From a virus: DNA of 64,000 bases. Every line of letters starts with the position of its first letter. Within the stretch, counting starts at the first letter, position 1. The translations under genes and the position numbers were made by a program. The DNA lies in IMG/VR virus record IMGVR_UViG_3300046820_001584, positions 21,741 to 85,740 of that record, one strand, 5' to 3'. A model generated the notes under the pieces. The model was not told the DNA's origin and did not search any database. It saw nothing but the letters and a program-made list of their open reading frames with translations. Shown one piece after another: positions 4,302 to 48,336 of the stretch.

Positions 4302-4451
4302 CTACTTCTCCTCTGGCTCCGCAGAATTTTGTGGTTGCTGAAGCTGTGTAATTTCTGCACGAAGTATTGCAACATGCGTCTCATATTGTGAGACAATCTC
4401 TCCAATACGTTGCTGTAGTGCTGTTACAACTAGTTCTAATTTATTATCCAT
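4302..4451 (-). CDS. small coiled-coil protein (not in ORF track)
   Basis: MDNKLELVVTALQQRIGEIVSQYETHVAILRAEITQLQQ..., 49 aa; AAGGA upstream. Confidence 0.65.
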   Translation of the reverse strand: MDNKLELVVTALQQRIGEIVSQYETHVAILRAEITQLQQPQNSAEPEEK

Positions 4452-4484
4452 TATATTCCTTTTCTATTCATAACAAGGATACCA

Positions 4485-7100
4485 TTATCCTTCAAGGGCG
4501 TCAAGTCTAGTATTGATGACATCAATCTTCTCTGATAATTCTTGAATAGCTAGTATCAGGGCTGTGGTCATTCTATCATAAGCTAAACCTTCTGTTTCCC
4601 CTAAAGCATTATAATTCACAAAGTCTTTTAATTTATCTATTTGTTCTACATCTTCAGCAATCAAACCAGTTATTATTGGTCTAACTGTTTCATATCCTGG
4701 GGTTTCGTCAATGTCTGTTTCTTGAAGTTTATATGAAAATTTAACTGGCTTTAATAGTTTAATTGCATCTAAGTATCCAGTGCTTTCTATTTCAGAAATG
4801 TTTTCTTTGTATCTTAGACTAGAAGAAGCAACTCTTATGTACCCTTGTGAATCTTGCACTAATCCAGTTCCCGATCCAGTTCCTAGCGTATTTGCATAAA
4901 TTCTTCCAGTTTGAAGGAATACTGAATACGGCTGCTGAGCTGTAACGTTTGTTATAGTATCGCTTCCGCCGTGCCCCATAAAAACTCTACCGCTACTTCT
5001 TACGTCATTCCATCTAAAACCTGGTAGCCCCAAATCACAGTTTGGAGAACCTGGCATATATGGATACCAATGTGTTGTGACGCCACCAGTTGCACTAGAC
5101 TCAATTCCAATTGCATTTATAACTAAAGAATCTATTCCAGCCTTATTTCCTTTTGTATCCAAGAAATAGCTTGTGTTAAGTGCTCCAGCTGTTAATCTGT
5201 GACCGTTTAGTGTGCCGACTGTAATTTTGGAGGCTGAAATTTCAAATGCAGATATAAAGTTTGAAACAACAGCGTCGGCAGAAATTGTTCCTGTTCTTAT
5301 TAATCCGCCTTCGATAGTTGTTGTATTAGTACTATTATTTATTTTAGCTATTATAGCTTCTTTGTTAAAATCGCTTTTTGCTACAGAAGCTAATACTGCT
5401 GCATTCTGAGCAGCTTGAGCTTTTGTTGTTGCATCTCCTGCTGCTGCATTAATTGCTGCTGTCTGCGCCGCATTGGCCTTAGTAGTGGCATCTGCGGCTG
5501 CAGATGATAGTATGCCATTTACAGAATCTGAAGTAGCATATCCAGCAAATACAGCACCAGTTGCATACAAAGTTCCATCTGCTGCGACTCTAAATTTTGC
5601 ATTTGCGTCTGGTGTATTATTACCAGCCCACATAAGAAAGCCACCAGAAGATTTTAAATAAACGCTCTGGGCTGCAGTGGACCCTACCTGTATTTGTCCT
5701 GTGCTGTCTAAGATAATATTGTTTTTAGATAATGTTGTACCGCTTAAGTTCCAGCCACCAATTGATCCAGCATTGGCTGTTATAGTTCCTGTTGCTGCTG
5801 CAATTGTTACAGAGTTAACGCCGTTAGCAACTTTTAATCCTGTTGAGTTTAACGCAAATCCATTTCCAGTTAGGTTGCCAGTAGTAGCATCAATTGTTCC
5901 ATTATAAATTGATGCGCCAGAAGTAGACATAAATATGTTACCGCTAAAGTTTCCGCCTTTTGCATTTATATCTCCATCTATTGTTAGCTTAGTACCATTC
6001 CATAAAAGGTAGTTTGAGGTAGCGCCGCCAACTTTTAATGAAGCTGATTGATTGGAATCTATATACCAATAGTTATTTGGATTAAATAGCAAGCCTCGTT
6101 TGCCAGTCTCGATTCCATATCCAAACTTAAATGCAGTTGAATCGGCATCTGTAGGATTTGCTTTTGCTCTAAAGAACCCAGCAACATCAACGGTTCCAGC
6201 AATATATGGAGTTCCAGTAATAGTTATGTTATTGCCAGCAACATATTGAGTTGATGTATTATTATATTCATCATATGTTGCAACTGCAAACTCATAAGTT
6301 AAACCAACACCAAGACCTAAAAGGTGATACGAAGTTCCTGTTCCAGGAGAGTCAACATATGAATATGCTGTTTCTGGTGTTGCAACTTGTCTCCACCGAA
6401 TTCTATATCCTCTTATACCGTTTCCAGTTACTGGCGACCAACGTATTGTTGCATGTCCATTAAATCCAATTATCCCGTCTAGATCCAAAGACCCTTCGGT
6501 AGTAACAGAACCAACATTTCCTGGGCCAGTTGTATCTACAACAATTGGGTCTTTTGCATTAAACTTTGCAGAAAAAACGCTTTTCTTTCTATAGTCTTGG
6601 TCTCTGGTATCTACACGAATCCACCTATCTGCAGTATTAGAGGCTAATATTGTTGCTGAATTGCCATTGCCATTCCAAACTAAATACTCTTCTCCAGTAA
6701 ATGCTCCAGTTAAACTTTCATATATTTGTATGTCTATAAGCCATTTGTTTGCAGGTAAAGCTTTATCTATTAGGTCCCATTTAACGCCGTAAGAAAGCAA
6801 GCCTGGTGTTACAACAAGATTAGTAACTGGCTGAGTTAAATCTGGTGTTTGTAGAGTAACTATAAAGTTTGGAGATCTTGGGCCAGTAATTGGAGCAGAT
6901 GGATTATCTGGATTTTCATAAATGTATGCAAATGAGAACTTGTATACTCCGTTCTGAACAACATTTAGTCCTGATCGTTGAACAATAAACGCATCTGATG
7001 TCTGTGTATTTGCTACTGCTGCTGCATCTGTTGTGTTAGCCTGTAAATCTGCTGGTCTAAGATTTAGAAATCTATCTATTGCGTCGTTATAACCTGCCAT
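4485..7100 (-). CDS. tail fiber/spike with FN3 domain and C-terminal intramolecular chaperone (peptidase S74-like)
   Basis: FN3-like W..V..IRGYRIRW..LTYEFAVATYD; C-terminal SSLRYKENI...LKPVKF...GLIAEDV...AIQEL. Confidence 0.8.
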   Translation of the reverse strand: MAGYNDAIDRFLNLRPADLQANTTDAAAVANTQTSDAFIVQRSGLNVVQNGVYKFSFAYIYENPDNPSAPITGPRSPNFIVTLQTPDLTQPVTNLVVTPGLLSYGVKWDLIDKALPANKWLIDIQIYESLTGAFTGEEYLVWNGNGNSATILASNTADRWIRVDTRDQDYRKKSVFSAKFNAKDPIVVDTTGPGNVGSVTTEGSLDLDGIIGFNGHATIRWSPVTGNGIRGYRIRWRQVATPETAYSYVDSPGTGTSYHLLGLGVGLTYEFAVATYDEYNNTSTQYVAGNNITITGTPYIAGTVDVAGFFRAKANPTDADSTAFKFGYGIETGKRGLLFNPNNYWYIDSNQSASLKVGGATSNYLLWNGTKLTIDGDINAKGGNFSGNIFMSTSGASIYNGTIDATTGNLTGNGFALNSTGLKVANGVNSVTIAAATGTITANAGSIGGWNLSGTTLSKNNIILDSTGQIQVGSTAAQSVYLKSSGGFLMWAGNNTPDANAKFRVAADGTLYATGAVFAGYATSDSVNGILSSAAADATTKANAAQTAAINAAAGDATTKAQAAQNAAVLASVAKSDFNKEAIIAKINNSTNTTTIEGGLIRTGTISADAVVSNFISAFEISASKITVGTLNGHRLTAGALNTSYFLDTKGNKAGIDSLVINAIGIESSATGGVTTHWYPYMPGSPNCDLGLPGFRWNDVRSSGRVFMGHGGSDTITNVTAQQPYSVFLQTGRIYANTLGTGSGTGLVQDSQGYIRVASSSLRYKENISEIESTGYLDAIKLLKPVKFSYKLQETDIDETPGYETVRPIITGLIAEDVEQIDKLKDFVNYNALGETEGLAYDRMTTALILAIQELSEKIDVINTRLDALEG

Positions 7101-7990
7101 TATAAAAACCCTAAATTAATTTTATATTCTATGTCCATCTCTACACCAAGCTTTTTTACAATTGGGCTGGTTAAAATAGATCTGCTTATTAGTCCGTATT
7201 GACTATTATATCTATCGTCATCGTTTATTCTTAACCCATCAAGTAATACATTAGTAGCTCCAGAAGATTTTGCTTTGGCTCCAACTTCTATTGTTGTAAT
7301 TGCAGAAAAGTCTGTTGCCCCTGCAGAAGAAAATGTTGAATTGAATAGGCTAGACATCTTGGCTGGTAATGAAATTTTTTGCCCAACTGATGAGTATCCA
7401 GGAAATCTTATTTCTTTATAGTTAGTTGGAGAGCTATAGAACCTAACGTAAACATAGTCTAGGTTTAAATCTGTTTGATAAAAAGCAATGGTCATAGAAT
7501 CATCTACACCATAACCAGATAAATTAAAAACTGTATCTAGGCTGTATGATTTCGATTGTCCCGCAGTTGCTGTAATAGAAAAATATGAGGACCCTATTCT
7601 TGGAGTTGGCGTAGATACTGTTGGTGGCTGGTTGCCACTTGAGTCCTTCCATTGTGTAGAGTCTTCAAAAGAAGATATGTACTGTGATGAATAGTCAGTG
7701 CTTCCAGAAGAAGTTGTTGGGAAAATTCCAATTTCTGATATTATTCCTTCAACATCCGTTGGAAGTGTTGTTTTATAAACAACAGAGTATGTAGTCACAC
7801 CAGTTGCCGTATTTGTTTGAATGTCGGAGCTTCCCAAGAAAACTCCTGATCTATAAAACTCAAATTGTAGATCTGAATCATTGAGTGTTGGAGCCTGGGA
7901 ACCTATTCCGATTGCAATATCTTTTTGATTAAAGTTAAGGCCATTGGCCAGATAAGATGTTATAAACCTTTTTCCAAATTTTGTTATCAT
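7100..7990 (-). CDS. minor tail protein
   Basis: MITKFGKRFI...DLQFEFYR...ISEIGIF, a baseplate/fiber-attachment-like pattern; position in tail block. Confidence 0.6.
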   Translation of the reverse strand: MITKFGKRFITSYLANGLNFNQKDIAIGIGSQAPTLNDSDLQFEFYRSGVFLGSSDIQTNTATGVTTYSVVYKTTLPTDVEGIISEIGIFPTTSSGSTDYSSQYISSFEDSTQWKDSSGNQPPTVSTPTPRIGSSYFSITATAGQSKSYSLDTVFNLSGYGVDDSMTIAFYQTDLNLDYVYVRFYSSPTNYKEIRFPGYSSVGQKISLPAKMSSLFNSTFSSAGATDFSAITTIEVGAKAKSSGATNVLLDGLRINDDDRYNSQYGLISRSILTSPIVKKLGVEMDIEYKINLGFL

Positions 7991-11684: not shown

Positions 11685-12133
11685 TATACTTCTTCCAGTG
11701 CAATAGTTACATCCCAAAATGCTTGTGCTGTATCCGCCGCTTTTTCCTTTACATTTCTTTTAATTAAATTAAATGAGCATGAGGTAAAGCTTGCTACAAA
11801 ATCTTCGGTCCTAGTTGTGTTGTATGCTATTCTGGCATTAAATGTTCCTTGTCCTTTAGCGCTTAAATAGAATGTCTTTATATCTTCTGCGCCCCAGCCG
11901 CCGTCTACGGTCATTGTGGAGTATGACGGAACCATGCTCCAAGAGGTGGACACGTTCTTCTTATCGGCTATAAACAGCTTTCTAAGGCTTCCATTGGCCA
12001 TTCTAGCAGTTTGCTCAAAGCGCTGGGTATCTATCGATATAGGAGATCTATTATGTTCAGTTAGTTTTTGCCATGCGCCAGCGGAATCTTGTATAAACAA
12101 GGCTGATCCTACTGGTAAAATTAAAGCTGGCAT
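11684..12133 (-). CDS. distal tail-like protein
   Basis: Immediately follows tape measure gene; RMANGSLR motif, ends LEEV. Confidence 0.65.
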   Translation of the reverse strand: MPALILPVGSALFIQDSAGAWQKLTEHNRSPISIDTQRFEQTARMANGSLRKLFIADKKNVSTSWSMVPSYSTMTVDGGWGAEDIKTFYLSAKGQGTFNARIAYNTTRTEDFVASFTSCSFNLIKRNVKEKAADTAQAFWDVTIALEEV

Positions 12134-15100
12134 TATATATTCTTCCCCTGTCCAACCATTTTAACATTAATCTTAGCCTTTTGTCCAATAACTATTTCAG
12201 CCTTCTTAACAATCATATTTGATAGTGCTTCGACATCCATTCCTTCTGAAGCATAAATATTTTGATTAACAACATATGAATTGCCTGAAGCAGATCCATC
12301 CTTTAAACTATACTGAGCTTTATTAAAATTATATCTTGGAGATGCGGCAGCCAATGTATTCATAACATCGTTTGGCATAATGTTGGCACGGTTTTTTAAG
12401 TGAACAAATTCTGGTCCATTTTCTCCAACAAGGAACATTCCCTTGCCACCCATAACACCTGTTGCTGCTTTTTTAGGCTTTGGTGCATGCCATATCGGAG
12501 TTCCTCCAGTACTATTCATTCCATACTTTTGTCCCCCGAATAGGAATGTCTCTCCTACTTGAAGATCCAATCTCTTTCTAATAGCATCACGAGCTTCTGC
12601 GTTTAAGACTTGAACCTTTTTACCATCAAAAGTTTTATCTTCCATCTGACTAGCATAATTACCAGTTACTTTAATGTCTTTTCTAAGAGCTGCGCTACCA
12701 GGAGTCTTGCCCTTTACGGCATCTACAACATCCTTAAGAGTTGCTCCACCCTTAATGCTATTTGCCAGTGCGTCGTTGACTGGTGATCCCGCTCCTGATT
12801 TTGCTAAGATCGCTAATGCGTTTGCTTGTGGTGTAACTGGAACCTTTTTAGTTACTAGAGTGCCACCTTCGTAAGCTTTTGTTTCAGTATATCTTGCCAT
12901 TTTTTGGCCAGTAGCAGCTTCAACTGCAGCTACTAATCCAGATGCAGCTTCTTTGTTTGCCTTAACATATTCTTCTACTGATTGACCTGCTGCAGCTGCA
13001 TTTCCATAAAGCGCAGTCATTGAATTATTAACCTTGTCTATTGCTGCTTTCTGTTCATCATACTTACCACGGACCTTATCTAAGCTTTCTCCAGCTAGTG
13101 CAGCACTATCTGCAAGCTTCTGCTGCTTGTTGCCCATAGCTTCAATAGCAGCCTTAAGTGGTGCATTTGCTGCTTCGTTTGCTTTGTCAATTGCTTTAGT
13201 TTGAGATTCTGTTTGCTGTGTAGTGGTTAATGTTTCTAAATCAAGTCTGAGCTCTTGAGCTTTTTGAGTGTCTCCAGTAGCTGAAGCGTTTTGCATTTCA
13301 AGTCTAGTTTTTTCAATTTGTCTTCCGAGATCTGCATCAGCCTGTGCTGCAGTCAAAGCTTTCTTTCTTGCATCTGCAAGTTTATTATTAGCTTCAATTT
13401 GCTTGTTTAATCCAGAAATCTTTTCTCTATCGGATATCTGCTGAGAAACTGTTTGTCCCTTTAGTGCCTTAGTATAAGATTTAATCTGATCTTCTAGTTT
13501 GCCAAGAGCAGAATACTGCTTGCTTAACATTCCGTCTTTACTTGAATTTGTTGCTACTACAGCTGTTGCTATGGCATTAAATGAATCAGAAATTAATTGT
13601 GTTTGAGCAGCATTTAATTGAGAAAGGTCTCCAGTAAAGCCCTTTGCCTGCAATCTAATTTTTTGCCATACGCTGACAACTGTATCTGACCCATTAATCA
13701 TTTTCTTTACTTCTGGATTTGTCTTTGCCATTTCATCAATGGTGCCTTGAGTAATTACTGTTCCAGCTTCCTTTGATTTATTGATCTGGTCAATCATTAT
13801 CTTTTCAGCTTCTGCAAAACTTAGAGACTTAGTCTTTCCAGTTAAATCTTTTGCTACTAATCTTTCTCTTTTTGCAATTAAATCATTAATTCCAGTCTCA
13901 GTTGCCATCAATGCTGTATTTAATGAGGCAGCCTTTTCTTTATTACCCTGGTCTTTAGTATCTTTGCCAAAGCTTGTTACTGCAGAAACTGCAGCAGATT
14001 GTGGATCGGTAATTGCTTTGAAGTCTACGTTACCCATTGTTGCAGTAATTGCTTGATCTTTCTTATTTGAAAGCTGAAGCATTGTATAAACCTTTTTAGT
14101 TGCATCTTCAGCAGACATACCAGCAGCTATAAGCTGCTCTTTAATTCTTCTAACTGCATCTGGAACCTTAGTTGAAGGCTGACGGTCTAATGCATCAATC
14201 TGTTCTTTAAATGTTTCCTTAACTTCAACCTTTAGCTTTTTGTATTCTGCAATTGTCATCTGGAATGGAGTTCCGCCATCCTTCATGCTTTCATAAACTA
14301 ATCTATTTGCATCTGCTAAATCTTTTGAATTTTGAATAGTATCTTTAATCTTTGATCCAAAGTCTGTGAATCTTAAGTTAGCTTTTTTGGCTGCTTCGGC
14401 AGTCATACCAAATGTAGATACGTTAAGTTCTTGTCCCTTTTTATAGTGTTGCCACATTTTGTATCCAGCATATCCAGCTGCTGTAACTGCTGCAAGCGGA
14501 GCAACTAATCCAGCAGCCGCTGCTGCTGTGGCTCCAAAGCCAGCTGAAGCTAATCCTGCTGTTGCTGCGCTAGCTGCGGCTCTTGTAGCAATCTTTCCTC
14601 CAATACCCTTCATGATAGATTGTCCACCCATCATTCCAGCCATGCTTCCCATCATTGCACCAGTTTCACCGCCAAGCTTTCCTCCAACTGCTCCACCAAC
14701 GGCCATTCCGCCCATCATTCCAACTGTGCTTCCGACTGCTCCTTGACCAAATGTTGCTGGATTTATTAAGCCTTTATTCTTCATGTATTGCATTGGATGC
14801 AACATGTTAGAAGTTGTATATCTTGCATTGGCAGCAAAGTTTTGACGTAGTGTTGCACCACCATAAGCTCCTGGAGCAACTGGTGGAGGAGAAGCAGCAA
14901 AACCTTTGAGATAAGATCCAGCTGCTTTTATTTGAGTACCGACTGCTTTAGCTGTTGTAGAAATTTGTGAACCTATGTACTTTATTCCAGTTACTAGTGG
15001 ATTTAGCGCTGATTTAATTTGTCCTGGCAGCATTCTTGCGCCCACTACAAGTTGGTCACCAGAATACTTAATAACCCTTCCAGTTGTAAGCGCATCTTTC

Positions 15101-18100
15101 TTAACACTTGTTCCAAAGGCGAATAAGGCCATCTCTATTTGTTTTGACGCAGATAGTAGGGCTGCTTGTGTTTTATTTAAAGCTGCATGACCTAATGTGA
15201 GTCCAGGCATATATGGCAAAGAACCTTGTACCCCGTATGTGTTTGTTCTAACACCGCCATTGCCAACTACTGTTGTTTTTGATCCAGTCAATGGGCCAGG
15301 CTTACGCTCTGGTGCTTCTACTGGCGCAGGAACATATGCCGCTGCACGTTCTGCCTTAGCTCTTTCTTGTGCTGCACGAGCCGCAGGATTTCCCTTACGA
15401 CCATAATAATCTTTGCTACGACGAATGATTCCACCAGCTTCAAAACCTGGTATTATCTTTCCGCTTTCAGAAGGACTAAATATTTCTGGGCCTTTTTCTC
15501 CAACAATATAATTTTGTCCTGGAGATACTGGACCGCCCATTTCTCTTTTGCCATCAATACCGAATATTGTTTTCTTAAGTTCTGCAGTAATAGGGGTATC
15601 TTTTTTTGAATCCCAGTTTAGATATTTCTTTCTAAGAATGTCTTTATCAATTGGAGATAGCTGTCTTATAAGATTTCTATCACTAAACAAATCGCTAGCT
15701 GCCGATCTAATAACTGAATCTAATGATGCTGGCTCAAGTGCATTCTTTAAAGAGCCCTTTGCATCTTTAACATAACCGTAAGGCTTTTCTTTTGCTAAAG
15801 CTGCAGCAAATTTATCATAAAGTAGTTTTTGTGTATTTTTTCTTAATCCAGAATTTGCAAACAATTTGTTTGCCATTTCGATTGAAAGTGAATTAACTCC
15901 CCAAGGGGCTGACTCATACATGCTTGGCTTAGGGGCACCAGTAGGACCAAATCCAGCACCTATTCTTCTCATGGCTAATCCCTTTAGCACATTGCCAATT
16001 GATCCACCTCCGTTAAATCCGTTAAGAGGTGTTTTAAATGAATTGTCAGAAAGAGATACTGCGTGTCCTCTTTGTCTAATTCTTAGTTCTGCTTCTTCCT
16101 TTAGCTTTTGAAGTGCGGCTGGGGTAAGAGCCTTTGATTGTGAAACCTTAACTGCAGAATGTATTCCATGGAATTCTTCCCAGTTTACTCTTCTTCCATC
16201 TTCAAGTCTCTTGATCATTGCTGCATATACAGCAGACTCTTCTGTGTTTAATTTACCAAGGGACTTGGCTACTGTTTCTTTAAGTCTAGGTAATACATCA
16301 TCTATCTCATCTATCATAGCCTTATGATATTGTTTTGGAGTCATTCCCTTTGGAATAGCCAATGTAGATTCAGCAAAGAATCTTCTTGCTCCGCCCTTTA
16401 CTCCTAGCAGATTAATATTTGCTTGGTCTTTCATTGAAATCATATTTTCTTCATATGATCTCTTACCAGAAGCTGTCTTAAATACACCAGCAGTACCTAC
16501 GTCATTTAATGTGCTTCCATAAAGGTTATCTGGGCTTAAATCTTTATCACCTCTTAGATTAGCTGCAACTAACTGCTTGAAATAATCTTTCTTTGTAAAT
16601 TCTCCAGATGCTTTTGCAAATGCTTCATCATAAGGAGACTCTAGAACTAATAGTTTTCTTCTACCTGCTGGATCGGTAGGATCAATCATTGTTCTAATTT
16701 CTTGCTTAGGGGCATTTAGTCCATGTGCCTCTCTAGCAATAATAGTAGCCCTTTGTTCTGCAAGTGCTGCGGTTTCATCCATTACTGGTTTAACAAATAC
16801 TCTTGTGCCATCTGCTTTTTCATATAAACCGCCAATACCTGGAACTGGGAAACTTCTTCCTGTTGATGGAGAAATTAACTTACCAAAATCTGTTACAGGC
16901 ATTCCTGCAAATCTACTGGTTTGTACTCCAGAATTAATTTCTTCCATGGTAAGTCTAGCTTTTCTTTGTAGTTCTACATCTTTAAATCTTTTTGGTATCC
17001 CAAGGAACAATGGTCTGCCATATGAGCGCTTGCCCTTTGTAACAGTACCACCAATCATTCCGCCAGCATTTTTTCTTTCTACTACATTTCTTTTTAAAAG
17101 CTTTAATTTAGCTGCAGATCCTCCTGCAGCAACAATGCTTGAATCAATAAATGGAATAAATGAATCGAAAGTTATATCTCCCTTCTCATCTCCAATTTTC
17201 TTTGACTCTTTGCCCTTTAATGATGCAGCAATTTTTGCATCAATTTCTCTTTCAGTATCTGCCCACTTTGATCTGTGAACTCCTGAACGTTGCATTATAG
17301 TATCGTATTTGCCAGTACGAGACATATTTCTTTCTAAGAAATTTTTAGCAATTAGTGTACCGTGGTTTGCTTGCAGATTAGATCTTGAATCATAATCAAC
17401 TGTGTACTTGCTAACAAATCTTCTGCCATTTCTTACTGATGCTCTGGTTAAATGTGTAGCATGAGTTACTCTTTCAAGATCCAAGGCTGGTAGCTTATTT
17501 TTTGCTAACAGTTTATCCAATGCTCCGCCACGCTCTAAATGGCCTGGCTCAATTGTAAATGTATCTCTTGCAAATCCCTTGTCCATTCCGCCTCTTCCAG
17601 TTCGTATAGAACCAGAAAAATCTTCTAGCAGGCTGGCTGCTCTTCTTCTTTCTCCAGCAGGCAAAGACCTTATGTAGTCATTAAGTACTGCCCTTGTTGT
17701 TGCTCCTCTAGCTAGCCAAGATCTAGATCCGTAGCCTCCTACGTACTGTGCATCTCTTTCTCTTACGGCTGCTCTTTGTAAATTTCTTTTTTCAGCTAGT
17801 AAAACTAACTGCTTTCTATATGCTGTTCTATTTGATGTAAATAGTCCTCTTATTATTGCGGCAGATGGAGGAACTAATCCATAGCTAGATCTAGAAAGCG
17901 TAATATTTCCACCAGCCATATTTGCCTGAAGAGGAGTTCCATTATTTGCAGCATCTACTGCTCTAAATAATTCTGGATTATTTTGTATGCCTGGGCCAAA
18001 TACTGTTTCTTGTGGAGTAAGCAATGCTGTTATATTGCTGCCAGATTTTTTATGTGTTGAAGGTGCGGCTGCAACAAGTGCTGCGTTTCTTGGATCTAGC

Positions 18101-20937
18101 GAAGCTTCTTGATTTAATACATATCCGCCAATTGGTACTGATCCCATTCTGTCATCATATGTAATTGATGCTGGACCAGTAACCCGTGTTTTATTTGAAC
18201 CAAATTCTTCAATTTTACCGCCCTCATTAAATCTAGGCTTTGTTGTTTGTATGCTGTATCCAGCACCTGAAGTTCTAACGCCAAGACCACGTGCAATAGA
18301 ATCTACAAGCTTGGAAGTTTCTGATTTATGGAAAAGTTCTTTCATGTTTGACTTTCCAGCTGCGCTTACAACTGGCTGAGTTGTTAATGGCACTGTAGTC
18401 AAACTAATAGTTCTTGCTTGAGCTGCTGCAACACCTTGTGCTGTTTGAACCATCATTGCTTCTACTTGTGCGTTTAATGCAAATATTTTAGCTCTTGCTG
18501 CTTCGACTGTAATCTTACCAGCTTGTAGCTGCTTAACAATTAAAGCGGTTTCGTCTGCTGCCAAAGAAGTTATCTTTGTCATTTGTGGAAGTAATGCTTG
18601 GTATGAATCTGCTAATGACGCAGTTACTGTTCCTGTAGCAGCAACTTCAGTTTTAAGTAATGCTAATTCTGCCTTTGACTGCATAGCAATTGCTGCTGTC
18701 ATAGAATGCCACTTTGCTGCTTCTGCTGCAACTATACCATTAGAGACTCCATTTACTGAAGTAACTCCAGGAATTCTTGGAAGATCGTCATTCATATATG
18801 TCTGTGGTGAATTTGAAAGTCTTAGGTTTACTGGCTTAGGGCCAGGCACTGTAGAGAATATTGTTTCACTTGCTCTTTGTTCTGCAGTTTTTGATCCAGT
18901 TGGAATAACATGAGACATGTCTCTTGAATAAGGTCTACCTACAAGAGGGTTATTTTTATCTACAATTCTTCCTCCACCTCGTGTAACTGGATTTCCAGCC
19001 ACGGTAGACATACTATTGTTTGTTGCAATAGTAGAAGACATAGCGCTTTGCTTTAGTTTGTCAAATGAGGCTGCTAAGGTTAAGACTGCATCTGAAAATG
19101 TTGCAGCTGCTTTTGTATCGCTGTAAAATGCTTGTTCTACAGTTTTAGCAGCTGACTCTGCTGCAATTAGTTCTGGTGTTAAAAGCTTAAATCCTGTTCC
19201 ACCCTTGCCAATATTTTTAAGTGCAAATATTCCTTTAATTATGTATCCAAAGAAGTTGGCAAGAACACCAGTTAACATAATGATTGGCCCAGCAATTGCT
19301 GTAAGGCTTCCAATAAATCCTAGAACTGCCTTAATCGGTCCAGGAAGGTTTCCTATAAACTTTACAATTCCATCAATTGCATTTAATACAAATGTTCCTA
19401 CCTTTAAGAACTGTTCTCCAATTACTGCGAGGTCTGCCTTTACAGCTTCGAGTGCTCTTCTATATTTACCAGAAGCAGACTCTGTCATTGCTGTTAATTC
19501 TCGCTCAGATATACTAGCCAAATCTTGTGTGCTAGCTTTCATTAAGTCTAGGACCTGAAGTGTTTGGCTTCCTTCTTTTCCTAGGTTTTCAAATAATGCA
19601 TTGATTCTTGCAAACTGGAACTTGCCAAATAGCTGTTCAATTGCTCTTGCTCTTTGTAGTGGTTGTAACGCATCTAACGAATCTTTAAGTGCCATAACTG
19701 TTCCAGTTAAGTTCCCAGCGTTTTTATCTACTATGCCAGCTAGATCAATACCAAATCCCATAAATTGTTCTTTAGCAACCTTAGTAGGATTAATAATAGA
19801 TGCAAGTGCTGACTTAAGAGCATTTGCACCTTCTGATGCATTGATTCCACCTTCACGCATTGCAGTTAAATAAAGTGCAAGATCTTGTACATCTCCGCCT
19901 AGAGCCTTTACTACTGGACCAGCTTTAGGAATCGCTTCAACTAAATCTGCAAGGCTTGTTGATGTTTGGTTTTCAACTGCGTTAAGGAAGTCAATTGATT
20001 CAGCCAACTGCTGTGTATTTTGACCAAAAGCTGTTTGGATAGAAAGTGTAGCTTTCATTGCTTCTTGTCTATCAACTTCTCCAAGAACTGCAAGTCTTGT
20101 AGTTTGTCTAGTAGAGTCTAGTAACTCAACTCCTTGCTTTCCAGTTGCTGCAATATCAGCCGCTAGTGCAATTGTTTCATTAAAGTTTGCACCTAATCCT
20201 GATGCTAATTCTCTTGATAATGCTGTAACATCTTTTCTAACTTGTAATAAATCTGCTGATGATGTTGCTGTTAATCCGCCATAAACCTTTGTAAGTCTTA
20301 CAAGCTCTTCGTCTGCTTGTCTAAATGCTTTTGCTGCAGCCATTCCAAATGCTGCCAATGGTACAGTAAGTCCTACAGTAAGCTGTCTACCTGCCCACTG
20401 AGTATTCTTACCCCAGTTAATAAGTTGATTAGATCCATCCATCATCACCTTGTTCATGATAGATAGTTCTTGTCTTAATAATGCTGATTTATTTTTTGTT
20501 GCATCTAGACCAGACTGAACCATAACATTGTATTGCATTAATCCTTGAGCATTTTTACCAAGTGGTTGAACTATGGCATTTTCAAGCATTACTTGTTGCT
20601 TAGCTAATTCTTTAACTAGTGTGCTAGTTTTTTGTGTATGACCCTGCCATGTTCTAAAATATTGGCCAAGCTTCATTCTACCGCTATCTAGATTTTGTCC
20701 AAACTTAGATACGTCTGATGTTAATGTTACAAAGTGTCTAGAGAACTGGCCAGTGGAGCGCATGGTTTCGTCAAACTGACGATTCATGACTCCAACCTGG
20801 CTAGTTAAATTTTTATTTAAACCAATTGTTGTAGCTTGAAGTTTTAGAAGTTGAGAGGTCACCGCTTGTAACTGCGCTGTTAGGCCACTAAAATTAGCCG
20901 TCGCAGTTATGTTGGTAACTATATTTTGATCTGCCAA
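12133..20937 (-). CDS. tape measure protein (TP901-type core) with inserted cargo domains
   Basis: 2934 aa; N-terminal TMP core (GRQLTVGLTVPL, EGANALKS), amphipathic segments, VGEKGPE/VGENGPE motifs; follows the chaperone genes. Confidence 0.92.
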   Translation of the reverse strand: MADQNIVTNITATANFSGLTAQLQAVTSQLLKLQATTIGLNKNLTSQVGVMNRQFDETMRSTGQFSRHFVTLTSDVSKFGQNLDSGRMKLGQYFRTWQGHTQKTSTLVKELAKQQVMLENAIVQPLGKNAQGLMQYNVMVQSGLDATKNKSALLRQELSIMNKVMMDGSNQLINWGKNTQWAGRQLTVGLTVPLAAFGMAAAKAFRQADEELVRLTKVYGGLTATSSADLLQVRKDVTALSRELASGLGANFNETIALAADIAATGKQGVELLDSTRQTTRLAVLGEVDRQEAMKATLSIQTAFGQNTQQLAESIDFLNAVENQTSTSLADLVEAIPKAGPVVKALGGDVQDLALYLTAMREGGINASEGANALKSALASIINPTKVAKEQFMGFGIDLAGIVDKNAGNLTGTVMALKDSLDALQPLQRARAIEQLFGKFQFARINALFENLGKEGSQTLQVLDLMKASTQDLASISERELTAMTESASGKYRRALEAVKADLAVIGEQFLKVGTFVLNAIDGIVKFIGNLPGPIKAVLGFIGSLTAIAGPIIMLTGVLANFFGYIIKGIFALKNIGKGGTGFKLLTPELIAAESAAKTVEQAFYSDTKAAATFSDAVLTLAASFDKLKQSAMSSTIATNNSMSTVAGNPVTRGGGRIVDKNNPLVGRPYSRDMSHVIPTGSKTAEQRASETIFSTVPGPKPVNLRLSNSPQTYMNDDLPRIPGVTSVNGVSNGIVAAEAAKWHSMTAAIAMQSKAELALLKTEVAATGTVTASLADSYQALLPQMTKITSLAADETALIVKQLQAGKITVEAARAKIFALNAQVEAMMVQTAQGVAAAQARTISLTTVPLTTQPVVSAAGKSNMKELFHKSETSKLVDSIARGLGVRTSGAGYSIQTTKPRFNEGGKIEEFGSNKTRVTGPASITYDDRMGSVPIGGYVLNQEASLDPRNAALVAAAPSTHKKSGSNITALLTPQETVFGPGIQNNPELFRAVDAANNGTPLQANMAGGNITLSRSSYGLVPPSAAIIRGLFTSNRTAYRKQLVLLAEKRNLQRAAVRERDAQYVGGYGSRSWLARGATTRAVLNDYIRSLPAGERRRAASLLEDFSGSIRTGRGGMDKGFARDTFTIEPGHLERGGALDKLLAKNKLPALDLERVTHATHLTRASVRNGRRFVSKYTVDYDSRSNLQANHGTLIAKNFLERNMSRTGKYDTIMQRSGVHRSKWADTEREIDAKIAASLKGKESKKIGDEKGDITFDSFIPFIDSSIVAAGGSAAKLKLLKRNVVERKNAGGMIGGTVTKGKRSYGRPLFLGIPKRFKDVELQRKARLTMEEINSGVQTSRFAGMPVTDFGKLISPSTGRSFPVPGIGGLYEKADGTRVFVKPVMDETAALAEQRATIIAREAHGLNAPKQEIRTMIDPTDPAGRRKLLVLESPYDEAFAKASGEFTKKDYFKQLVAANLRGDKDLSPDNLYGSTLNDVGTAGVFKTASGKRSYEENMISMKDQANINLLGVKGGARRFFAESTLAIPKGMTPKQYHKAMIDEIDDVLPRLKETVAKSLGKLNTEESAVYAAMIKRLEDGRRVNWEEFHGIHSAVKVSQSKALTPAALQKLKEEAELRIRQRGHAVSLSDNSFKTPLNGFNGGGSIGNVLKGLAMRRIGAGFGPTGAPKPSMYESAPWGVNSLSIEMANKLFANSGLRKNTQKLLYDKFAAALAKEKPYGYVKDAKGSLKNALEPASLDSVIRSAASDLFSDRNLIRQLSPIDKDILRKKYLNWDSKKDTPITAELKKTIFGIDGKREMGGPVSPGQNYIVGEKGPEIFSPSESGKIIPGFEAGGIIRRSKDYYGRKGNPAARAAQERAKAERAAAYVPAPVEAPERKPGPLTGSKTTVVGNGGVRTNTYGVQGSLPYMPGLTLGHAALNKTQAALLSASKQIEMALFAFGTSVKKDALTTGRVIKYSGDQLVVGARMLPGQIKSALNPLVTGIKYIGSQISTTAKAVGTQIKAAGSYLKGFAASPPPVAPGAYGGATLRQNFAANARYTTSNMLHPMQYMKNKGLINPATFGQGAVGSTVGMMGGMAVGGAVGGKLGGETGAMMGSMAGMMGGQSIMKGIGGKIATRAAASAATAGLASAGFGATAAAAAGLVAPLAAVTAAGYAGYKMWQHYKKGQELNVSTFGMTAEAAKKANLRFTDFGSKIKDTIQNSKDLADANRLVYESMKDGGTPFQMTIAEYKKLKVEVKETFKEQIDALDRQPSTKVPDAVRRIKEQLIAAGMSAEDATKKVYTMLQLSNKKDQAITATMGNVDFKAITDPQSAAVSAVTSFGKDTKDQGNKEKAASLNTALMATETGINDLIAKRERLVAKDLTGKTKSLSFAEAEKIMIDQINKSKEAGTVITQGTIDEMAKTNPEVKKMINGSDTVVSVWQKIRLQAKGFTGDLSQLNAAQTQLISDSFNAIATAVVATNSSKDGMLSKQYSALGKLEDQIKSYTKALKGQTVSQQISDREKISGLNKQIEANNKLADARKKALTAAQADADLGRQIEKTRLEMQNASATGDTQKAQELRLDLETLTTTQQTESQTKAIDKANEAANAPLKAAIEAMGNKQQKLADSAALAGESLDKVRGKYDEQKAAIDKVNNSMTALYGNAAAAGQSVEEYVKANKEAASGLVAAVEAATGQKMARYTETKAYEGGTLVTKKVPVTPQANALAILAKSGAGSPVNDALANSIKGGATLKDVVDAVKGKTPGSAALRKDIKVTGNYASQMEDKTFDGKKVQVLNAEARDAIRKRLDLQVGETFLFGGQKYGMNSTGGTPIWHAPKPKKAATGVMGGKGMFLVGENGPEFVHLKNRANIMPNDVMNTLAAASPRYNFNKAQYSLKDGSASGNSYVVNQNIYASEGMDVEALSNMIVKKAEIVIGQKAKINVKMVGQGKNI

Positions 20938-20941
20938 CTAC

Positions 20942-21307
20942 CTACTCCTTTTGGTATCCAAGTCCTGCTCCGATACCGAACCCTGCTTCTGAAGCAAACT
21001 GACCTTGTAGTGAAACAACATCTGATGCATCTGCAGATATTCCAAGAGCTCTTCTTCTTACATCTTCAAAGCTACTTGTTTCTTCTTGTTCTCCACCATC
21101 AAGCTCTATGCCTTGAATGGAGGCCAGAAACTTTCTTTTTTCTGATTCAGACTTTTGCATTGATTTAAAAGTTTGAATCAACTCTGGCATTGAAAGACTG
21201 TCTTCCAATTCCTCATAATTCTTATAGTTGCCTATTAAGAATACTTCTCCTTCTAGTGCAGCTAGATCTAGTTCTGACCAGCTAGAACCGCTGCTGCTAG
21301 CAAATTT
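20942..21307 (-). CDS. tail assembly chaperone, second (frameshifted) ORF
   Basis: -1 frame open from the slippery site: ...WSELDLAALEGEVFLIGNYKNYEELEDSLSMPEL...; no good own start. Confidence 0.7.
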   Translation of the reverse strand, partial: KFASSSGSSWSELDLAALEGEVFLIGNYKNYEELEDSLSMPELIQTFKSMQKSESEKRKFLASIQGIELDGGEQEETSSFEDVRRRALGISADASDVVSLQGQFASEAGFGIGAGLGYQKE

Positions 21308-21600
21308 GGATCATCCATCTTGATGCCACCGCAAATTTCAAGAATGCGATTGATTGTTGGAACATCAAGGGTGTCTTCAAATGCGTCTCTATCTTTTACC
21401 AAATCTGGCAGTTGCTTTTCTAATGCTACTGCACAAGCGTCGATAAGAATGGTTAGTGTCTCGTCTTCTGTAGTTACTTCTGCTGTCTTTGCGATAGCCG
21501 CCATAAACTTTCTAAGCTCTTTAATTGTTAAAGGCTTTAGCTTTACGGTTGCACCATTTTGCAGTTGAATCTCTTCTACATCATATACTGTTGTTGCCAA
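21268..21600 (-). CDS. tail assembly chaperone
   Basis: Lies between tail tube and TMP; LKPLTIKELRKFM; TTG start with AGGAGG. Confidence 0.8.
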   Translation of the reverse strand: MATTVYDVEEIQLQNGATVKLKPLTIKELRKFMAAIAKTAEVTTEDETLTILIDACAVALEKQLPDLVKDRDAFEDTLDVPTINRILEICGGIKMDDPNLLAAAVLAGQN

Positions 21601-38996: not shown

Positions 38997-41477
38997 TTAC
39001 GCTTTCAAGTCTCCAGCTAACAACCAAGTTGTTGCTGCGACTTTTGTGGCTGTCACTGATGAGTTTGTTGTTCTAAGTGTTGCACCTGGTGTTGCAAGAA
39101 TTGTAACTCCAGATCCAGTTATGTTAGCACCAGTACCTGATGACTGGTAGAAGTTAATTGAAGAACCAATTGCATACTTAGCATTTCCTGTTGCTTCAAA
39201 GCTTACGTTTACTGCTCCTGATAGAGGGACCAATGAGTCTCTTACTGCGGCATCTGTTCCAAGTGCATCTAATGTTGAGTTAGATGAAACAGCTGTTGCT
39301 ATTGTTGTAAGTGATGGTACACCAGCCCGTGTTTGAACCTTATCTGTAAATGCTACTCCAGCTGCTGCAACTGTTACTGTTCCAGTAAATGTTGGGCTAG
39401 CGATTGGTGCCTTTGCTGCAAGTCCAGTTGTAACTGTTGAAGCAAAGTTTGCGTCATCACCGAGTGCTGCTGCAAGTTCGTCAAGGGTATTGAGTGCTGC
39501 TGGGGCTGATGCAATTACTGCATTTACCTGAGCTGTTGCATCTGCAATAGCCTCTGACTTAGCAGTTGCAATTGCTGAAGCCTGTGCTGTAGATACTGGC
39601 TTAGCTGAGTCTGCTGTATTATTAACATTTGCAAGTCCTACTGAAGACTTTGTAAGTGCTGCTACCGCAGTTGAAACCTTTGTATCTGCTGCTGTTCCAG
39701 CTGCAGTAATAGCTTCTGACTTAGCAGTTGCTACATTTGCTGTAGTTGCTAGAAGTGAAGTATCTGCAATGCCGTGAATGTTTGTTGTATCTGATTCGTG
39801 ATTTGAAAGTGCTGTAGCTGCTGAACCAAATTGTGACTGCACAGAAGATGAAATTCCATCAAGATAACCTAGTTCTGTTGAGCTAAGATTTCCAATTGAT
39901 GTTGTGCTTGGTAGCACTACTGTTCCTGTAAATGTTGGACCATCTAATGGGGCAAGGGCTGTTAGTGAAGCTCCTAGTCCGTCAATTTTACTTTGAGCAA
40001 TTGCTGCGGTAGGGCTAATGTCTGCGTTTACAATTGTTTCATTTGTAATTTTATCAGATGTAATTGCTCCATTTATAATGTTTACTGTATTTATTGAGTT
40101 AGCTGCAACCTTTGCAGCAGTTACTGATGAGTCAGCAATCTTTGCAGTGCTAACTGCGCTGTCGGCAATCTTTCCATTTGATACTGATAAAGCTGCAATT
40201 TTGGCTTCAGTTACAGCATTTGTTGCAATCTTAGATGAAGTTACAGCATCTTCTGCAATCTTCTCTGTAGTGACTGCAAGTCCACCAATTTCATTTGTTC
40301 CAACAGAATCATCAGAAAGATGAGACTGGGAAATTGAATTAGCTGCAATCTTTTCTGCAGTAACTGCATTGAGTGCAATTTTAGCTGTAGTGACTGCATT
40401 TGGAGCAATCTCAGACTCTCCAACTGCATTGTCTGAAATCTTAGCGGCTGTAATTGAGTTGTCTGCAATCTTGGCTGCTGTTACTGCATTTTCTGCAAGA
40501 TTTGCTGCAACAATTGATCCGTTTGGCAAAACTATTGTTCCAGTTAATGTTGGGTTATTTAGAACAGATTCTGTTGACTCTAATCTTCCAACTGCTATGG
40601 CATCTAATGATCCCTGTGTAAAATCAACTGTGGTTGTAGGCTCTGTTGTAACTCCCTTAAATAACTTCCACTTGTCTTCTGAAGCATCACGCACAAATCC
40701 AGTGTGATTAAATGTTCCAGTGTTATGACCAGCAACAAAACCTAAGTCAAGCATTCCCGACTGGTTTGCTTTTGCCATAAGAAGCATTGTGTCTTCAATC
40801 GCAAAGTTTTCGGTGTTAATTGTTGTCATTGTTCCATTGACTGCAAGATTACCGCTAATTGTAACATCCTTAGCAAATAAGTCTCCAGTTGTTGAAATGT
40901 CTGTAGTAAGAGAGCCTAGTGGCAACTCTGACTGTAAAATTTTAGTATTTGAATCTAACGAAGCAACTCCGCCTGCAGTTCCTCTATCTCCTGTTTCTAG
41001 GTATCCTGATAGTGAGCTGTTTAATCCGCTTACTGCAGTGTCAGTGTAATCTTCTGCAGCAGATATTGCTGCAGCCTGTGCTGCATTTGCTTTAGTAGTT
41101 GCATCTGACGCAGCTGCTGCGATTGCTTCTGATTTAGCATTTGCTGCTTTAGTGTTTGCTTCTGATGTAGCAAATGTTTTTGTTGAAACTACATCTGTGT
41201 CTACAGTTATAGTAATTGTATTTGCACCATCGTTATAAGTCTTTGTTAAACCTGCGCCCATTGTTAAGGCTGTGTTAATTGCATCTTGGGAAATTTCACC
41301 AATTGCTACATCTGAGTTGTTGGCATATGCTAGGGCTGTCCATGTAGCTGTTCCATTACCAAACTTAAATAAATTAGTGTTTGTTTCAACACCCATTTCA
41401 CCTGCAGCTAATACTGGATTTGCTGTGGTCCATTCAGAGGCTGTACCTCTTCTTACTTGAATTCTTACTGTTGACAT
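38997..41477 (-). CDS. fiber protein with Mtd-N-like N-terminus and 10-aa VTxAKIA repeats
   Basis: RIQVRRGTASEWTTANPVLAAGEMGVET; (AVTxAKIAxN)n; APAALNTLDELAAALGDD. Confidence 0.75.
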   Translation of the reverse strand: MSTVRIQVRRGTASEWTTANPVLAAGEMGVETNTNLFKFGNGTATWTALAYANNSDVAIGEISQDAINTALTMGAGLTKTYNDGANTITITVDTDVVSTKTFATSEANTKAANAKSEAIAAAASDATTKANAAQAAAISAAEDYTDTAVSGLNSSLSGYLETGDRGTAGGVASLDSNTKILQSELPLGSLTTDISTTGDLFAKDVTISGNLAVNGTMTTINTENFAIEDTMLLMAKANQSGMLDLGFVAGHNTGTFNHTGFVRDASEDKWKLFKGVTTEPTTTVDFTQGSLDAIAVGRLESTESVLNNPTLTGTIVLPNGSIVAANLAENAVTAAKIADNSITAAKISDNAVGESEIAPNAVTTAKIALNAVTAEKIAANSISQSHLSDDSVGTNEIGGLAVTTEKIAEDAVTSSKIATNAVTEAKIAALSVSNGKIADSAVSTAKIADSSVTAAKVAANSINTVNIINGAITSDKITNETIVNADISPTAAIAQSKIDGLGASLTALAPLDGPTFTGTVVLPSTTSIGNLSSTELGYLDGISSSVQSQFGSAATALSNHESDTTNIHGIADTSLLATTANVATAKSEAITAAGTAADTKVSTAVAALTKSSVGLANVNNTADSAKPVSTAQASAIATAKSEAIADATAQVNAVIASAPAALNTLDELAAALGDDANFASTVTTGLAAKAPIASPTFTGTVTVAAAGVAFTDKVQTRAGVPSLTTIATAVSSNSTLDALGTDAAVRDSLVPLSGAVNVSFEATGNAKYAIGSSINFYQSSGTGANITGSGVTILATPGATLRTTNSSVTATKVAATTWLLAGDLKA

Positions 41478-46386: not shown

Positions 46387-48336
46387 TTAATACTGAATAT
46401 ATATATCTCCAGCTACATTTCCGCTGGCTGGTGGTGTTGCGCTGGCTCCATAAGTAATCTTATTAACATTTGATCCGTTTATACCATTAGTGTATCCAGT
46501 GTTTACTGAACCGCCTAAAGATATTGATGATCCATTTATAGTAATTGCATTATTTTGTAGCATTGAATTTGATATTACTGGCAACGCAGATGTTAAAATT
46601 TTACCAGAAATGTCAAGCCCAGCGTATCCTCCAGCAATATTTCTGTCAGAAACAAGTGCGTAAACTCCTAATGAGTTATTAATTCCATTTCTGGCTGTAT
46701 CTGTATATGCTTTTGCTTCATTCAGAGCAGCAGTTAAATTAACTGATGTAGCGTATCCAGATATTAAAGCTCCTGTTGGAATTGTTACTGTTCCAGTAAA
46801 TGTTGGTGAAGCAATTGGTGCGTAGGTTGTTTGTGCTGTAGCAGAAGATAGCTTTGTATCAACTAATGTTGCTAAAGCTGTTGCTGCGGCTCCATCTGTG
46901 CTTATATATGTTGCAATTTCTTTAAGAGTATCAAAAGCTGCTGGTGCAGAATCAACAACACTTGCTATCGCAGATGTTACAGTAGATGCGACGTCAGCTG
47001 TTCTTGCAATTGCTGATGGTATTGCTGTTTCTGATATTTTGCTACCAGAATCAAGTCCAGCAACTCCTCCTGGTGCATTTCTATCTGAAGCAGGAAGATA
47101 ATTTAATATGTCTGCTTGCAACTCTGTTCTTAAATCATCTACAGCAGATAATGCTGACAATAAAATGTTTGTTCTTGCTGCATTTGTAGCAGTTACTGCT
47201 CTAGCGTTTGTAAAATATAGATTGTTTCCTTCTGGAAGATCTGTAGTTGATGTTAATGAAGATCCTCCTCCAGGAACTGATGCTATTGCATCTGCAATAT
47301 CTGATGCAACTGCCGCTTTGGCTCTTTGATCAGTAAAATATTTGTTTGTTCCTTCTTCTATGTCTGAAGTAGTTAAAGCATTAATAGAAGATGCTAAAGT
47401 ATTGGTAATATGTGTACGTAAAATTGCATCTGTAGCAATGTCTCCGTTATCTGCATAATTTTGAGCCAAAGTTTGTGCAGATGTAGCTTTTGTAGTAGCA
47501 TCTGTTGCTGCTGCAGAGATTGCTGCAGACTGTGCGGCGTTGGCCTTTGAAGTTGCATCTGTTGCTGCTGCAGAGATTGCTGCAGACTGTGCGGCGTTGG
47601 CCTTTGAAGTTGCATCTGTTGCTGCTGCAGAGATTGCTGAATTAGCTTTAGTTGTGGCATCTGTTGCTGCTGCAGTTTGTGCAGCATCTGCTGCCGCTTT
47701 TGCATAAGCGGTTGTAGCAATTTGCGTTGTATTTGTGTTAATAGCTGCGGTTGGTGCTGTAGGTACTCCAGTTAATGCTGGAGAAGCAATTGGTGCTTTT
47801 AAACCAACTGAGGCTGTAAGGTTTGAAATTGTGTCTGGTGAGTTACCAAGGGCTGCCGCAAGTTCGCTTAAAGTGTTAAGGGTTCCTGGCGCAGAATTAA
47901 TAAGATCGCTTATTTTAGTAGCAGTATTAGTTGCTGCAGTTACTACAGCCTGATTGGCAGAACCAATTGGATCAAATGCTGTCTGTCCTGCTGCAATTGC
48001 TCTAGCTGGTGTAAAATATAAGTTTGTTCCTTCTGCTATATTTGATGTTGTTCTTGAGCTAAATGCGGTTGTAATAGCTGCTTCTAAATCTTGGATTGAA
48101 TTAAAATTTGGAATCTGAGAAAGCGGAATTTTCCCAGAAGAGTCTAGTGTAGCTACACCATTTGGGCTACCTGGCTTTAATGCATAAAATTCAATGGCGT
48201 TCCATCTTTGTGTTCCATTGCCTACTTTAAATTTTAAAGTATCTGTTTCAATGCCAACTTCACCATTTAAAAGTAGTGGATTGTTTGCTGTCCAGTTTGC
48301 TGCTATGTCTCTTCTTAATTGAATTTTTAGTGCCAT
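46387..48336 (-). CDS. fiber protein with Mtd-N-like N-terminus
   Basis: KIQLRRDIAANWTANNPLLLNGEVGIETDT; EGTNLYFT repeats; 19-aa Ala-rich repeats. Confidence 0.75.
   Translation of the reverse strand: MALKIQLRRDIAANWTANNPLLLNGEVGIETDTLKFKVGNGTQRWNAIEFYALKPGSPNGVATLDSSGKIPLSQIPNFNSIQDLEAAITTAFSSRTTSNIAEGTNLYFTPARAIAAGQTAFDPIGSANQAVVTAATNTATKISDLINSAPGTLNTLSELAAALGNSPDTISNLTASVGLKAPIASPALTGVPTAPTAAINTNTTQIATTAYAKAAADAAQTAAATDATTKANSAISAAATDATSKANAAQSAAISAAATDATSKANAAQSAAISAAATDATTKATSAQTLAQNYADNGDIATDAILRTHITNTLASSINALTTSDIEEGTNKYFTDQRAKAAVASDIADAIASVPGGGSSLTSTTDLPEGNNLYFTNARAVTATNAARTNILLSALSAVDDLRTELQADILNYLPASDRNAPGGVAGLDSGSKISETAIPSAIARTADVASTVTSAIASVVDSAPAAFDTLKEIATYISTDGAAATALATLVDTKLSSATAQTTYAPIASPTFTGTVTIPTGALISGYATSVNLTAALNEAKAYTDTARNGINNSLGVYALVSDRNIAGGYAGLDISGKILTSALPVISNSMLQNNAITINGSSISLGGSVNTGYTNGINGSNVNKITYGASATPPASGNVAGDIYIQY

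Follow-up and report, generated by a model that had tools for sequence, protein, structure and literature searches.

The stretch of DNA analysed here (the window, 64,000 nucleotides) covers positions 21,741 to 85,740 of the IMG/VR virus record IMGVR_UViG_3300046820_001584, an 85.7-kb record with a completeness estimate of 80%, and the element considered is a segment with a predicted kinase fold that is inserted in the gene for the tape measure protein (TMP) of the phage tail. The gene product is identified as a TMP by its match to Pfam PhageMin_Tail (PF10145) at residues 243-438 (19624-20211, E 4e-27), by the PHROG families that match it, of which 11 of 12 are tape-measure families (nine of these on the N-terminal third), and by its position between a pair of chaperone-like open reading frames (ORFs) and the genes for tail and minor tail proteins. 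The TMP and the parts of it that delimit the kinase segment are as follows.

12133 to 20937, minus strand: TMP gene, a single open frame of 2934 amino acids (aa) with a TTG start.
18358 to 20640, minus strand: conserved N-terminal core of the TMP (residues 100-860), including the PF10145 match, from the core search.
17017 to 17070, minus strand: upstream linker, N-A-GG-M-I-GG-...-S-Y-G (residues 1290-1307), recognized by its repeated motif and by the end of homology to the relative P0289 at residue 1307.
16006 to 17016, minus strand: kinase cassette (residues 1308-1644, 337 residues), a unit present or absent, from the alignment with P0289.
16000 to 16017, minus strand: downstream linker, F-N-GGG-S (residues 1641-1646); homology to P0289 resumes at residue 1645.
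16123 to 16950, minus strand: modelled kinase-fold domain (residues 1330-1605), from AlphaFold2.

The kinase segment is a true accessory cassette, bounded by linkers and inserted in the TMP. A search with the TMP core (residues 100-860) recovered 4315 proteins at E ≤ 0.001, and among the best 120 of them, which are 69-97% identical, a scan with a hidden Markov model (HMM) of the kinase found the domain in 88 and recorded it as absent from 32. The relative P0289 matches residues 1-1307 and continues at residues 1645-2833 without a break in its own sequence, and is thus without exactly residues 1308-1644; at the joint it carries one linker (...F-N-S-GG-P-V-GG-M-I-R-S-G-K-Y-N-Y-G), and the upstream linker of the window reads in full ...N-A-GG-M-I-GG-T-V-T-K-G-K-R-S-Y-G. 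In two other relatives, P0277 and P0278, other, unrelated segments occupy the same place as the kinase cassette. The preliminary description of this locus had proposed a kinase domain inserted in the TMP at 16150-17010 (TMP residues 1310-1596); the presence and absence among relatives and the exact indel in P0289 bear out the insertion, and the location was right, but the unit is slightly larger, as the coordinates of the cassette (16006-17016) and of the modelled fold (16123-16950) indicate.

Five short motifs had been read in this segment in the order usual for kinases, and all five lie at residues 1366-1481, on the secondary-structure elements where they would be expected. Together with the residues assigned to them, they are placed as follows.

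16822 to 16860, minus strand: beta1-beta2 loop and strand beta2 (G1360, S1362, G1370, Y1372), the presumed nucleotide-binding loop, from the alignment and the DSSP assignment of the model; PGIGGLY occupies residues 1366-1372 (16822-16842).
16789 to 16791, minus strand: K1383, putative beta3 lysine, in 129 of 129 homologues and on model strand 50-55; VFVK occupies residues 1380-1383 (16789-16800).
16756 to 16758, minus strand: E1394, putative helix-C glutamate, in 129 of 129 homologues and on model helix 59-74; LAEQ occupies residues 1392-1395 (16753-16764).
16522 to 16557, minus strand: putative catalytic loop LRGDKDLSPDNL, residues 1461-1472 (D1464, D1466, N1471), from the alignment, after model helix 120-133.
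16495 to 16506, minus strand: NDVG, the putative DFG equivalent, residues 1478-1481 (D1479, G1481), from the alignment, just after the short strand pair 143-148 of the model.

Conservation was read from an alignment of 129 full-length copies of the domain, which are 28-80% identical to the query (mean 50%), over 276 columns. Eight of these columns are invariant (G1360, G1370, K1383, E1394, P1410, Q1455, N1471 and D1479); D1466 and S1362 are each kept in 128 homologues, G1481 in 126, Y1372 in 125 and D1464 in 123, the other six having Asn at this last position. The Lys, Asp and Asn residues emphasized in the preliminary description are therefore conserved, K1383, N1471 and D1479 completely and D1466 with one exception. 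A beta3 Lys with a helix-C Glu, and an Asp-x4-Asn loop with an Asp-x-Gly, are features of the protein-kinase-like (PKL) superfamily, and both pairs are found here; given the conservation among the 129 homologues, the motif pattern goes beyond chance. Two details of the earlier reading did not hold as worded. The pattern GxxDxHxxN has no His here, the sequence being G-D-K-D-L-S-P-D-N, and the Gly-rich loop PGIGGLY is present, but in the model its 'GLYE' part forms strand beta2, and the nucleotide loop would be the 12-residue beta1-beta2 loop with G1360 and S1362. Speculatively, S1362 and S1490 might be sites of autophosphorylation.

The kinase cassette is under purifying selection. In eight pairwise comparisons with related loci, the ratio of nonsynonymous to synonymous divergence (dN/dS) of the kinase part was 0.058-0.144, with 0.047-0.075 for the TMP core and 0.119-0.197 for the C-terminal part; many of the dS values are near 1, that is, close to saturation, and for the kinase the pairs with the least divergence (dS 0.36 and 0.39) gave 0.058 and 0.110. 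These values bear on the alternative that the cassette is a non-catalytic module whose kinase fold is retained for sensing nucleotides, as a plug or as a ruler spacer. Pseudokinases are common in this fold, and a cassette that sits in a length-determining protein could simply add length; against this, the full catalytic set is conserved (the presumed base D1466 and the presumed metal ligands N1471 and D1479) at a dN/dS of about 0.06-0.14, which is atypical for pseudokinases, a spacer needs no conserved active site, and 32 of the 120 relatives have no cassette. We regard a non-catalytic module as highly improbable.

With an alignment of 37 sequences, AlphaFold2 modelled the domain at a predicted local distance difference test score (pLDDT) of 95.7 and a predicted template modelling score (pTM) of 0.93. 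The model begins with a strand, a 12-residue loop, a strand, a strand ending in K1383, a helix with E1394, two strands and a helix; there follow the loop D1464-K-D1466-L-S-P-D-N1471, a pair of short strands, D1479-V-G and a helical C-lobe. Its elements thus succeed one another as in protein-kinase-like domains, with the two-lobed PKL fold. Every match listed by Foldseek against the PDB was a kinase or a kinase-containing complex. A second structural method, the VIA search, which is independent of Foldseek and covered 48,161 chains, returned kinases in all of the best 50 matches listed, with scores of 10.3 for MavQ, 10.2 for PI4KIIalpha, 10.1 for CtkA, 9.6 for Fam20C, 8.5 for actin-fragmin kinase, 8.4 for HipA and about 8 for kinases of the PI3K/ATM type. 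A repeat of the structural comparison agreed (5jd9, which is CotH, 12.1; CtkA 11.5; MavQ 10.6; PI4KIIbeta 10.4; LepB 9.8; HipA 9.2), so that the best structural match is CotH and not HipA. The neighbours named by the ESM Atlas, which uses language-model features, were clusters of HipA_2 (19 hits), PI3_PI4_kinase and LepB_N. The kinase fold proposed in the preliminary description is upheld by the AlphaFold2 model and by fold searches that matched kinases exclusively, and it is very probable that the fold is genuinely that of a kinase and that its active site is intact; that the domain is a real phosphotransferase is likewise predicted with good, if somewhat lower, confidence.

Fold matches were also found among viral proteins. 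In BFVD, the nine matches at E ≤ 1e-3 are mostly large multi-domain phage proteins, such as proteins that bear the name ADP-ribosyltransferase (of 1220 aa and 1340 aa, with a Mycobacterium phage as the source of one), an HK97-type portal (1201 aa) and a 614-aa protein with a PI3/PI4-kinase domain; weaker matches include two Gordonia phage proteins and one protein with a head-morphogenesis domain. Going by these fold matches, kinase-fold cargo on large phage proteins may be wider than TMPs.

The domain is widespread and was found in long proteins. A HMMER scan with residues 1290-1620 against 1.84 billion cluster representatives (50% clustering) matched 166 proteins at E ≤ 0.001, and 133 of the 150 listed among them are longer than 1000 aa. 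A word-indexed search matched 782 clusters (90% identity) among proteins of 1613-5135 aa, and PF10145 is carried by 112 of 120 proteins among the matches listed, as read from that listing. No free-standing form of the domain was found among proteins of 151-483 aa; only 11 proteins of this size match, and since they cover 61-96% of the domain and eight come from contigs no longer than 2.8 kb, they look like fragments.

The surroundings of the cassette suggest a modular arrangement. The linker motif (N/E/A)-x-GG-x-(I/V) recurs five times in the TMP (residues 653, 904, 1290, 1642 and 1833), often with (S/Y/N)-Y-G within about 12 residues downstream, and brackets cassettes over approximately residues 900-1850 (15400-18230). 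The same GG motifs flank CHAP, LysM and OmpA domains in relatives. It might serve as a joint for recombination, as a site of cleavage or as a peptide for docking to the tube. The position of the kinase itself varies between the first residue (where proteins are truncated) and residue 2820, the median being 1224. In a sample of 241 proteins, in which close relatives are over-represented, 136 share one main upstream context and 93 another, and the downstream contexts are many. Synonymous divergence of the cassette differs from that of its flanks in both directions (core dS 0.52 and kinase dS 1.30 at locus L010; core dS 0.76 and kinase dS 0.36 at locus L003), a contrast that fits recent exchange of the cassette by recombination among related phages. 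Several linker-bounded cassettes are present in the TMP of the window, and the kinase is the only one assignable to a fold. The cassette next to it is the following.

17062 to 17856, minus strand: upstream cassette, residues 1028-1292.

AlphaFold2 gave this upstream cassette a pLDDT of 68.7 from a shallow alignment of four sequences, with one stretch below 50, and no fold could be assigned. The dN/dS values obtained for this module (0.64-0.98 in six of eight pairs) were set aside as the product of a forced alignment of non-homologous cassettes.

With respect to the host, the nearest cultured relatives both of the TMP core and of a neighbouring 601-aa protein are Streptomyces phages of about 130 kb (23-34% identity). 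A 240-aa protein at 62296-63018 matches Pfam GP88 over its full length (E 6e-54), a family that we take to be one of mycobacteriophages and thus a hint of actinophage ancestry. WhiB exceeds its Pfam cut-off in three of five related virus records with a kinase-bearing TMP, one of them a complete 110-kb genome, and as a control WhiB was positive only in Corynebacterium among 14 genomes. Taken together, the Streptomyces-phage relatives, GP88 and the WhiB matches in related records make an actinobacterial host likely. Among GTDB genome contigs, 23 pattern matches were found, and none is a relative. The metagenome runs in which this DNA is shared come from freshwater, lake or aquatic samples (at a share of at least 0.2, 18 runs in 8 studies), none of the listed runs carrying it being an RNA sequencing run; this gives a lead to a freshwater habitat, and the context points to a freshwater siphovirus.

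On this basis we propose that the TMP carries a catalytically competent atypical kinase cassette, of the branch that includes CotH, CtkA, PI4KII, MavQ, LepB, Fam20 and HipA, and that this cassette is delivered to the host by the virion; for the whole chain, delivery included, we put the probability at roughly 0.5. The cassette would remain part of the TMP in the virion and exit the tail together with it at infection, reach the inner membrane face or the cytoplasm of the (probably actinobacterial) host, and fold or refold there. Using host ATP and a divalent metal, the kinase would then phosphorylate a host target ahead of any phage gene expression, in the service of takeover, counter-defence or the exclusion of rival phages. 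Among the top structural matches, CotH, CtkA, Fam20C and HipA are protein kinases, and MavQ, PI4KII and LepB phosphoinositide kinases; by analogy with CotH, CtkA, HipA and Fam20C, a protein Ser/Thr substrate seems somewhat more likely, with a membrane lipid such as phosphatidylinositol as the alternative.

Delivery and action at entry are suggested by what is known of TMPs, which are ejected ahead of the DNA, and by the CHAP, LysM and OmpA cassettes in the same slots; taken separately, this part of the proposal has, by analogy, an even chance at best. Domains that bind or cut the cell wall are useful only on arrival at a new cell, which favours an entry-phase use of the slots. Two hydrophobic segments of the TMP are also counted in favour of carriage in the virion and action at entry.

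19219 to 19335, minus strand: hydrophobic segment, residues 535-573, from a hydropathy scan.
14467 to 14544, minus strand: second hydrophobic segment, residues 2132-2157, from hydropathy and composition scans; it is preceded by a Gly/Met-rich tract, then comes the helix-rich C-terminal half of the TMP.

Several observations count against this chain. In sequence, Pfam gives no match to the domain at a threshold as loose as E ≤ 10, no PDB kinase is matched by phmmer or by the 37-sequence profile, and the CotH HMM (PF08757) has no match in the virus record at E ≤ 10. In structure, the Foldseek E-values against the PDB are weak (1e-3 to 1e-2), and the equivalence of the putative catalytic residues rests on their order, spacing and secondary structure; in one of the 129 homologues the catalytic D1466 is replaced by Val. 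The 32 of 120 close relatives without the cassette indicate that it is dispensable, and the record under study, which is incomplete, has a sub-threshold WhiB match of 13.9 bits and no better. Finally, a folded domain of about 30 kDa in at least three copies could hardly be accommodated in the lumen of a siphovirus tail, so that the kinase domain would have to travel unfolded or sit outside the lumen, and ATP is available solely inside the cell. The best PDB hit of the profile, a leucine-rich-repeat protein at E 0.008, was taken as spurious.

The silence of Pfam and of PDB sequences, and the shortness of the motifs, would suit chance motifs in a low-complexity or coiled-coil ruler that contains no domain at all. 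This explanation is refuted by a domain of 276 residues present in 166 representatives, by the confidence of its model, by fold matches to kinases exclusively and by purifying selection, and it retains next to no probability.

The lumen and the ATP bear on another explanation, in which the kinase acts in the producing cell, either while the TMP, which is produced late and abundantly, is free or after excision at the GG linkers, and phosphorylates structural proteins of the phage or factors of the host during assembly. There ATP is freely available and the problem of fitting the lumen is avoided; the GG linkers, which bracket every cassette, could be cleavage sites, and the best structural match, CotH, is an assembly-phase kinase that phosphorylates coat proteins during spore assembly. 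Against it, no evidence of a protease or of cleavage was found, a Pfam scan identified no peptidase in the TMP, and the CHAP, LysM and OmpA cassettes in like slots make sense only if they are carried by the virion to the next cell. In addition, a study of phage P23-45 describes a TMP-fused RNA polymerase that acts after ejection (PMC10770324), an example that a TMP-borne enzyme can work at that stage and one that we count for action at entry. We consider the producing-cell explanation unlikely, and prefer delivery by the virion.

As regards family, the preliminary description had called the domain HipA/PI3K-like. This branch of the fold is indeed among the best structural matches, but membership of either family is not supported. 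The window protein has no significant match to HipA (PF07804) or HipA_2 (PF20613), and HipA_2 has a sub-significant match (E 0.014) in one of 37 relatives only. There is no HMM match to PI3_PI4_kinase (PF00454), and the DRHxxN loop of that family is absent, D-L-S-P-D-N standing in its place. In a collection of 50,697 cultured-phage records, tblastn detected no copy of the segment at E 1e-3, and megablast of the whole TMP gene gave no match. Since no sequence-level match to a named family was found, we treat the domain as a new family of the kinase fold, placed within its atypical branch (that of CotH, PI4K and HipA) but outside every named family.

The same results bear on the possibility that the cassette is a delivered envelope lipid or sugar kinase, which would phosphorylate, for instance, phosphatidylinositol or a membrane or cell-wall precursor and so aid channel formation or block superinfection. 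Phosphoinositide kinases are well represented among the top matches; against such a function, the top match CotH, and CtkA, Fam20C and HipA as well, are protein kinases, there is no PI3_PI4 Pfam match, and the histidine of DRH is missing. We find it quite unlikely. A more specific and very unlikely version sees the TMP as a modular injection platform: once it is inserted in the actinobacterial membrane, a lipid kinase in the cassette would phosphorylate phosphatidylinositol at the entry site, remodelling the membrane for the DNA or shutting out other phages. Phosphatidylinositol is present in actinobacteria, unlike most bacteria, and this version, if true, would give phage infection its first signalling step of the phosphoinositide type.

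TMPs are familiar as rulers and as a component of the conduit for DNA; wall-cutting motifs occur in a few of them and an RNA polymerase in one. Comparison with known systems clarifies what the cassette proposed here would add. CotH (PDB 5jd9/5jda, PF08757), an atypical Ser/Thr kinase found in the spore coat of Bacillus, is 8-9% identical to the TMP domain and is a free-standing spore protein, whereas the TMP domain is a cassette in a phage tail protein. From the type II PI 4-kinases and the Legionella effector lipid kinases MavQ and LepB, the TMP domain differs in having no PF00454 match and in a loop without the Arg-His of DRHxxN. In the case of the HipA/HipA_2 toxin kinases, the alignment is confined to the C-terminal kinase portion of HipA (about residues 122-437 of the chain), and no antitoxin context was seen around the TMP cassette.

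Among enzymes carried by infecting particles, the closest precedent is gp96 of Thermus phage P23-45, which is described as a giant TMP fused to a virion RNA polymerase that is used at the start of infection (PMC10770324); that polymerase is N-terminal and its activity was shown by experiment, whereas the cassette considered here is a predicted kinase in the middle of the TMP. Polyvalent proteins are multi-domain proteins of phages and plasmids that are delivered with the invading DNA, frequently contain a peptidase for processing and include kinase domains (Iyer et al. 2017, PMC5512222). As presented in the main text of that paper, these kinases are of the Ser/Thr/Tyr type, have lost the C-terminal subdomain and come from prophages of Verrucomicrobia-Chlamydia and Bacteroidetes, whereas the domain described here lies within a TMP and has kept its helical C-lobe; the term 'tape measure' is used 0 times in the main text, and the supplementary architecture lists could bear on this point. 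The actinobacterial contractile injection systems with the TMP-related effectors Tme and Sle1 show TMP-like carriers with exchangeable enzymatic domains (PMC11126660, PMC13277306); these effectors are cargo of bacterial phage-tail-like particles, with nuclease and other domains, in contrast to a kinase in a phage TMP. Enzyme-bearing TMPs, polyvalent-protein kinases and TMP-related injection-system effectors are thus already known, and for a conserved kinase-fold cassette in a TMP no published description was found in the open-access literature and bioRxiv, as judged mostly from titles and the beginnings of abstracts.

The occurrence of a conserved, apparently active kinase (as modelled) in TMP clusters that number in the hundreds and come from abundant freshwater phages would broaden the view of tails as carriers of ready-made enzymes, and would supply a concrete protein for the question of how host takeover or counter-defence might begin before phage gene expression. 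In addition, the presence or absence of the cassette among TMPs that are about 90% identical in the core is a natural experiment on whether a cassette counts toward tail length and on how folded domains travel through the tail; were it to act as ruler, the 337 residues would lengthen the tail by about 50 nm, at 0.15 nm per residue.

The remaining genes of the tail region are in keeping with the identification of the TMP.

20942 to 21600, minus strand: two small ORFs, of 110 and 88 aa, directly upstream of the TMP, from the ORF list.

The 110-aa ORF matches phrog_10504, and by position alone the two would be tail assembly chaperones; a 245-aa protein with an Ig domain that precedes the TMP is, judged by its position, probably the tail tube protein. 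Two proteins that start with Mtd_N, the N-terminus of the major tropism determinant, are encoded on the minus strand at 38997-41477 (826 aa, E 5e-14) and 46387-48336 (649 aa, E 2e-11). Upstream of the window, at record positions 4305-7211, a minus-strand gene run encodes a 253-aa P-loop protein that resembles APS kinase, a 135-aa homologue of staphylococcal nuclease, a 332-aa protein of the IMPDH/GMP-reductase kind and a 197-aa protein with a CHAP domain; the first of these is unrelated to the fold of the TMP kinase. A 665-aa protein at 51170-53167 matches the ribonucleotide reductase (RNR) barrel and the insertion domain of B12-dependent RNR.

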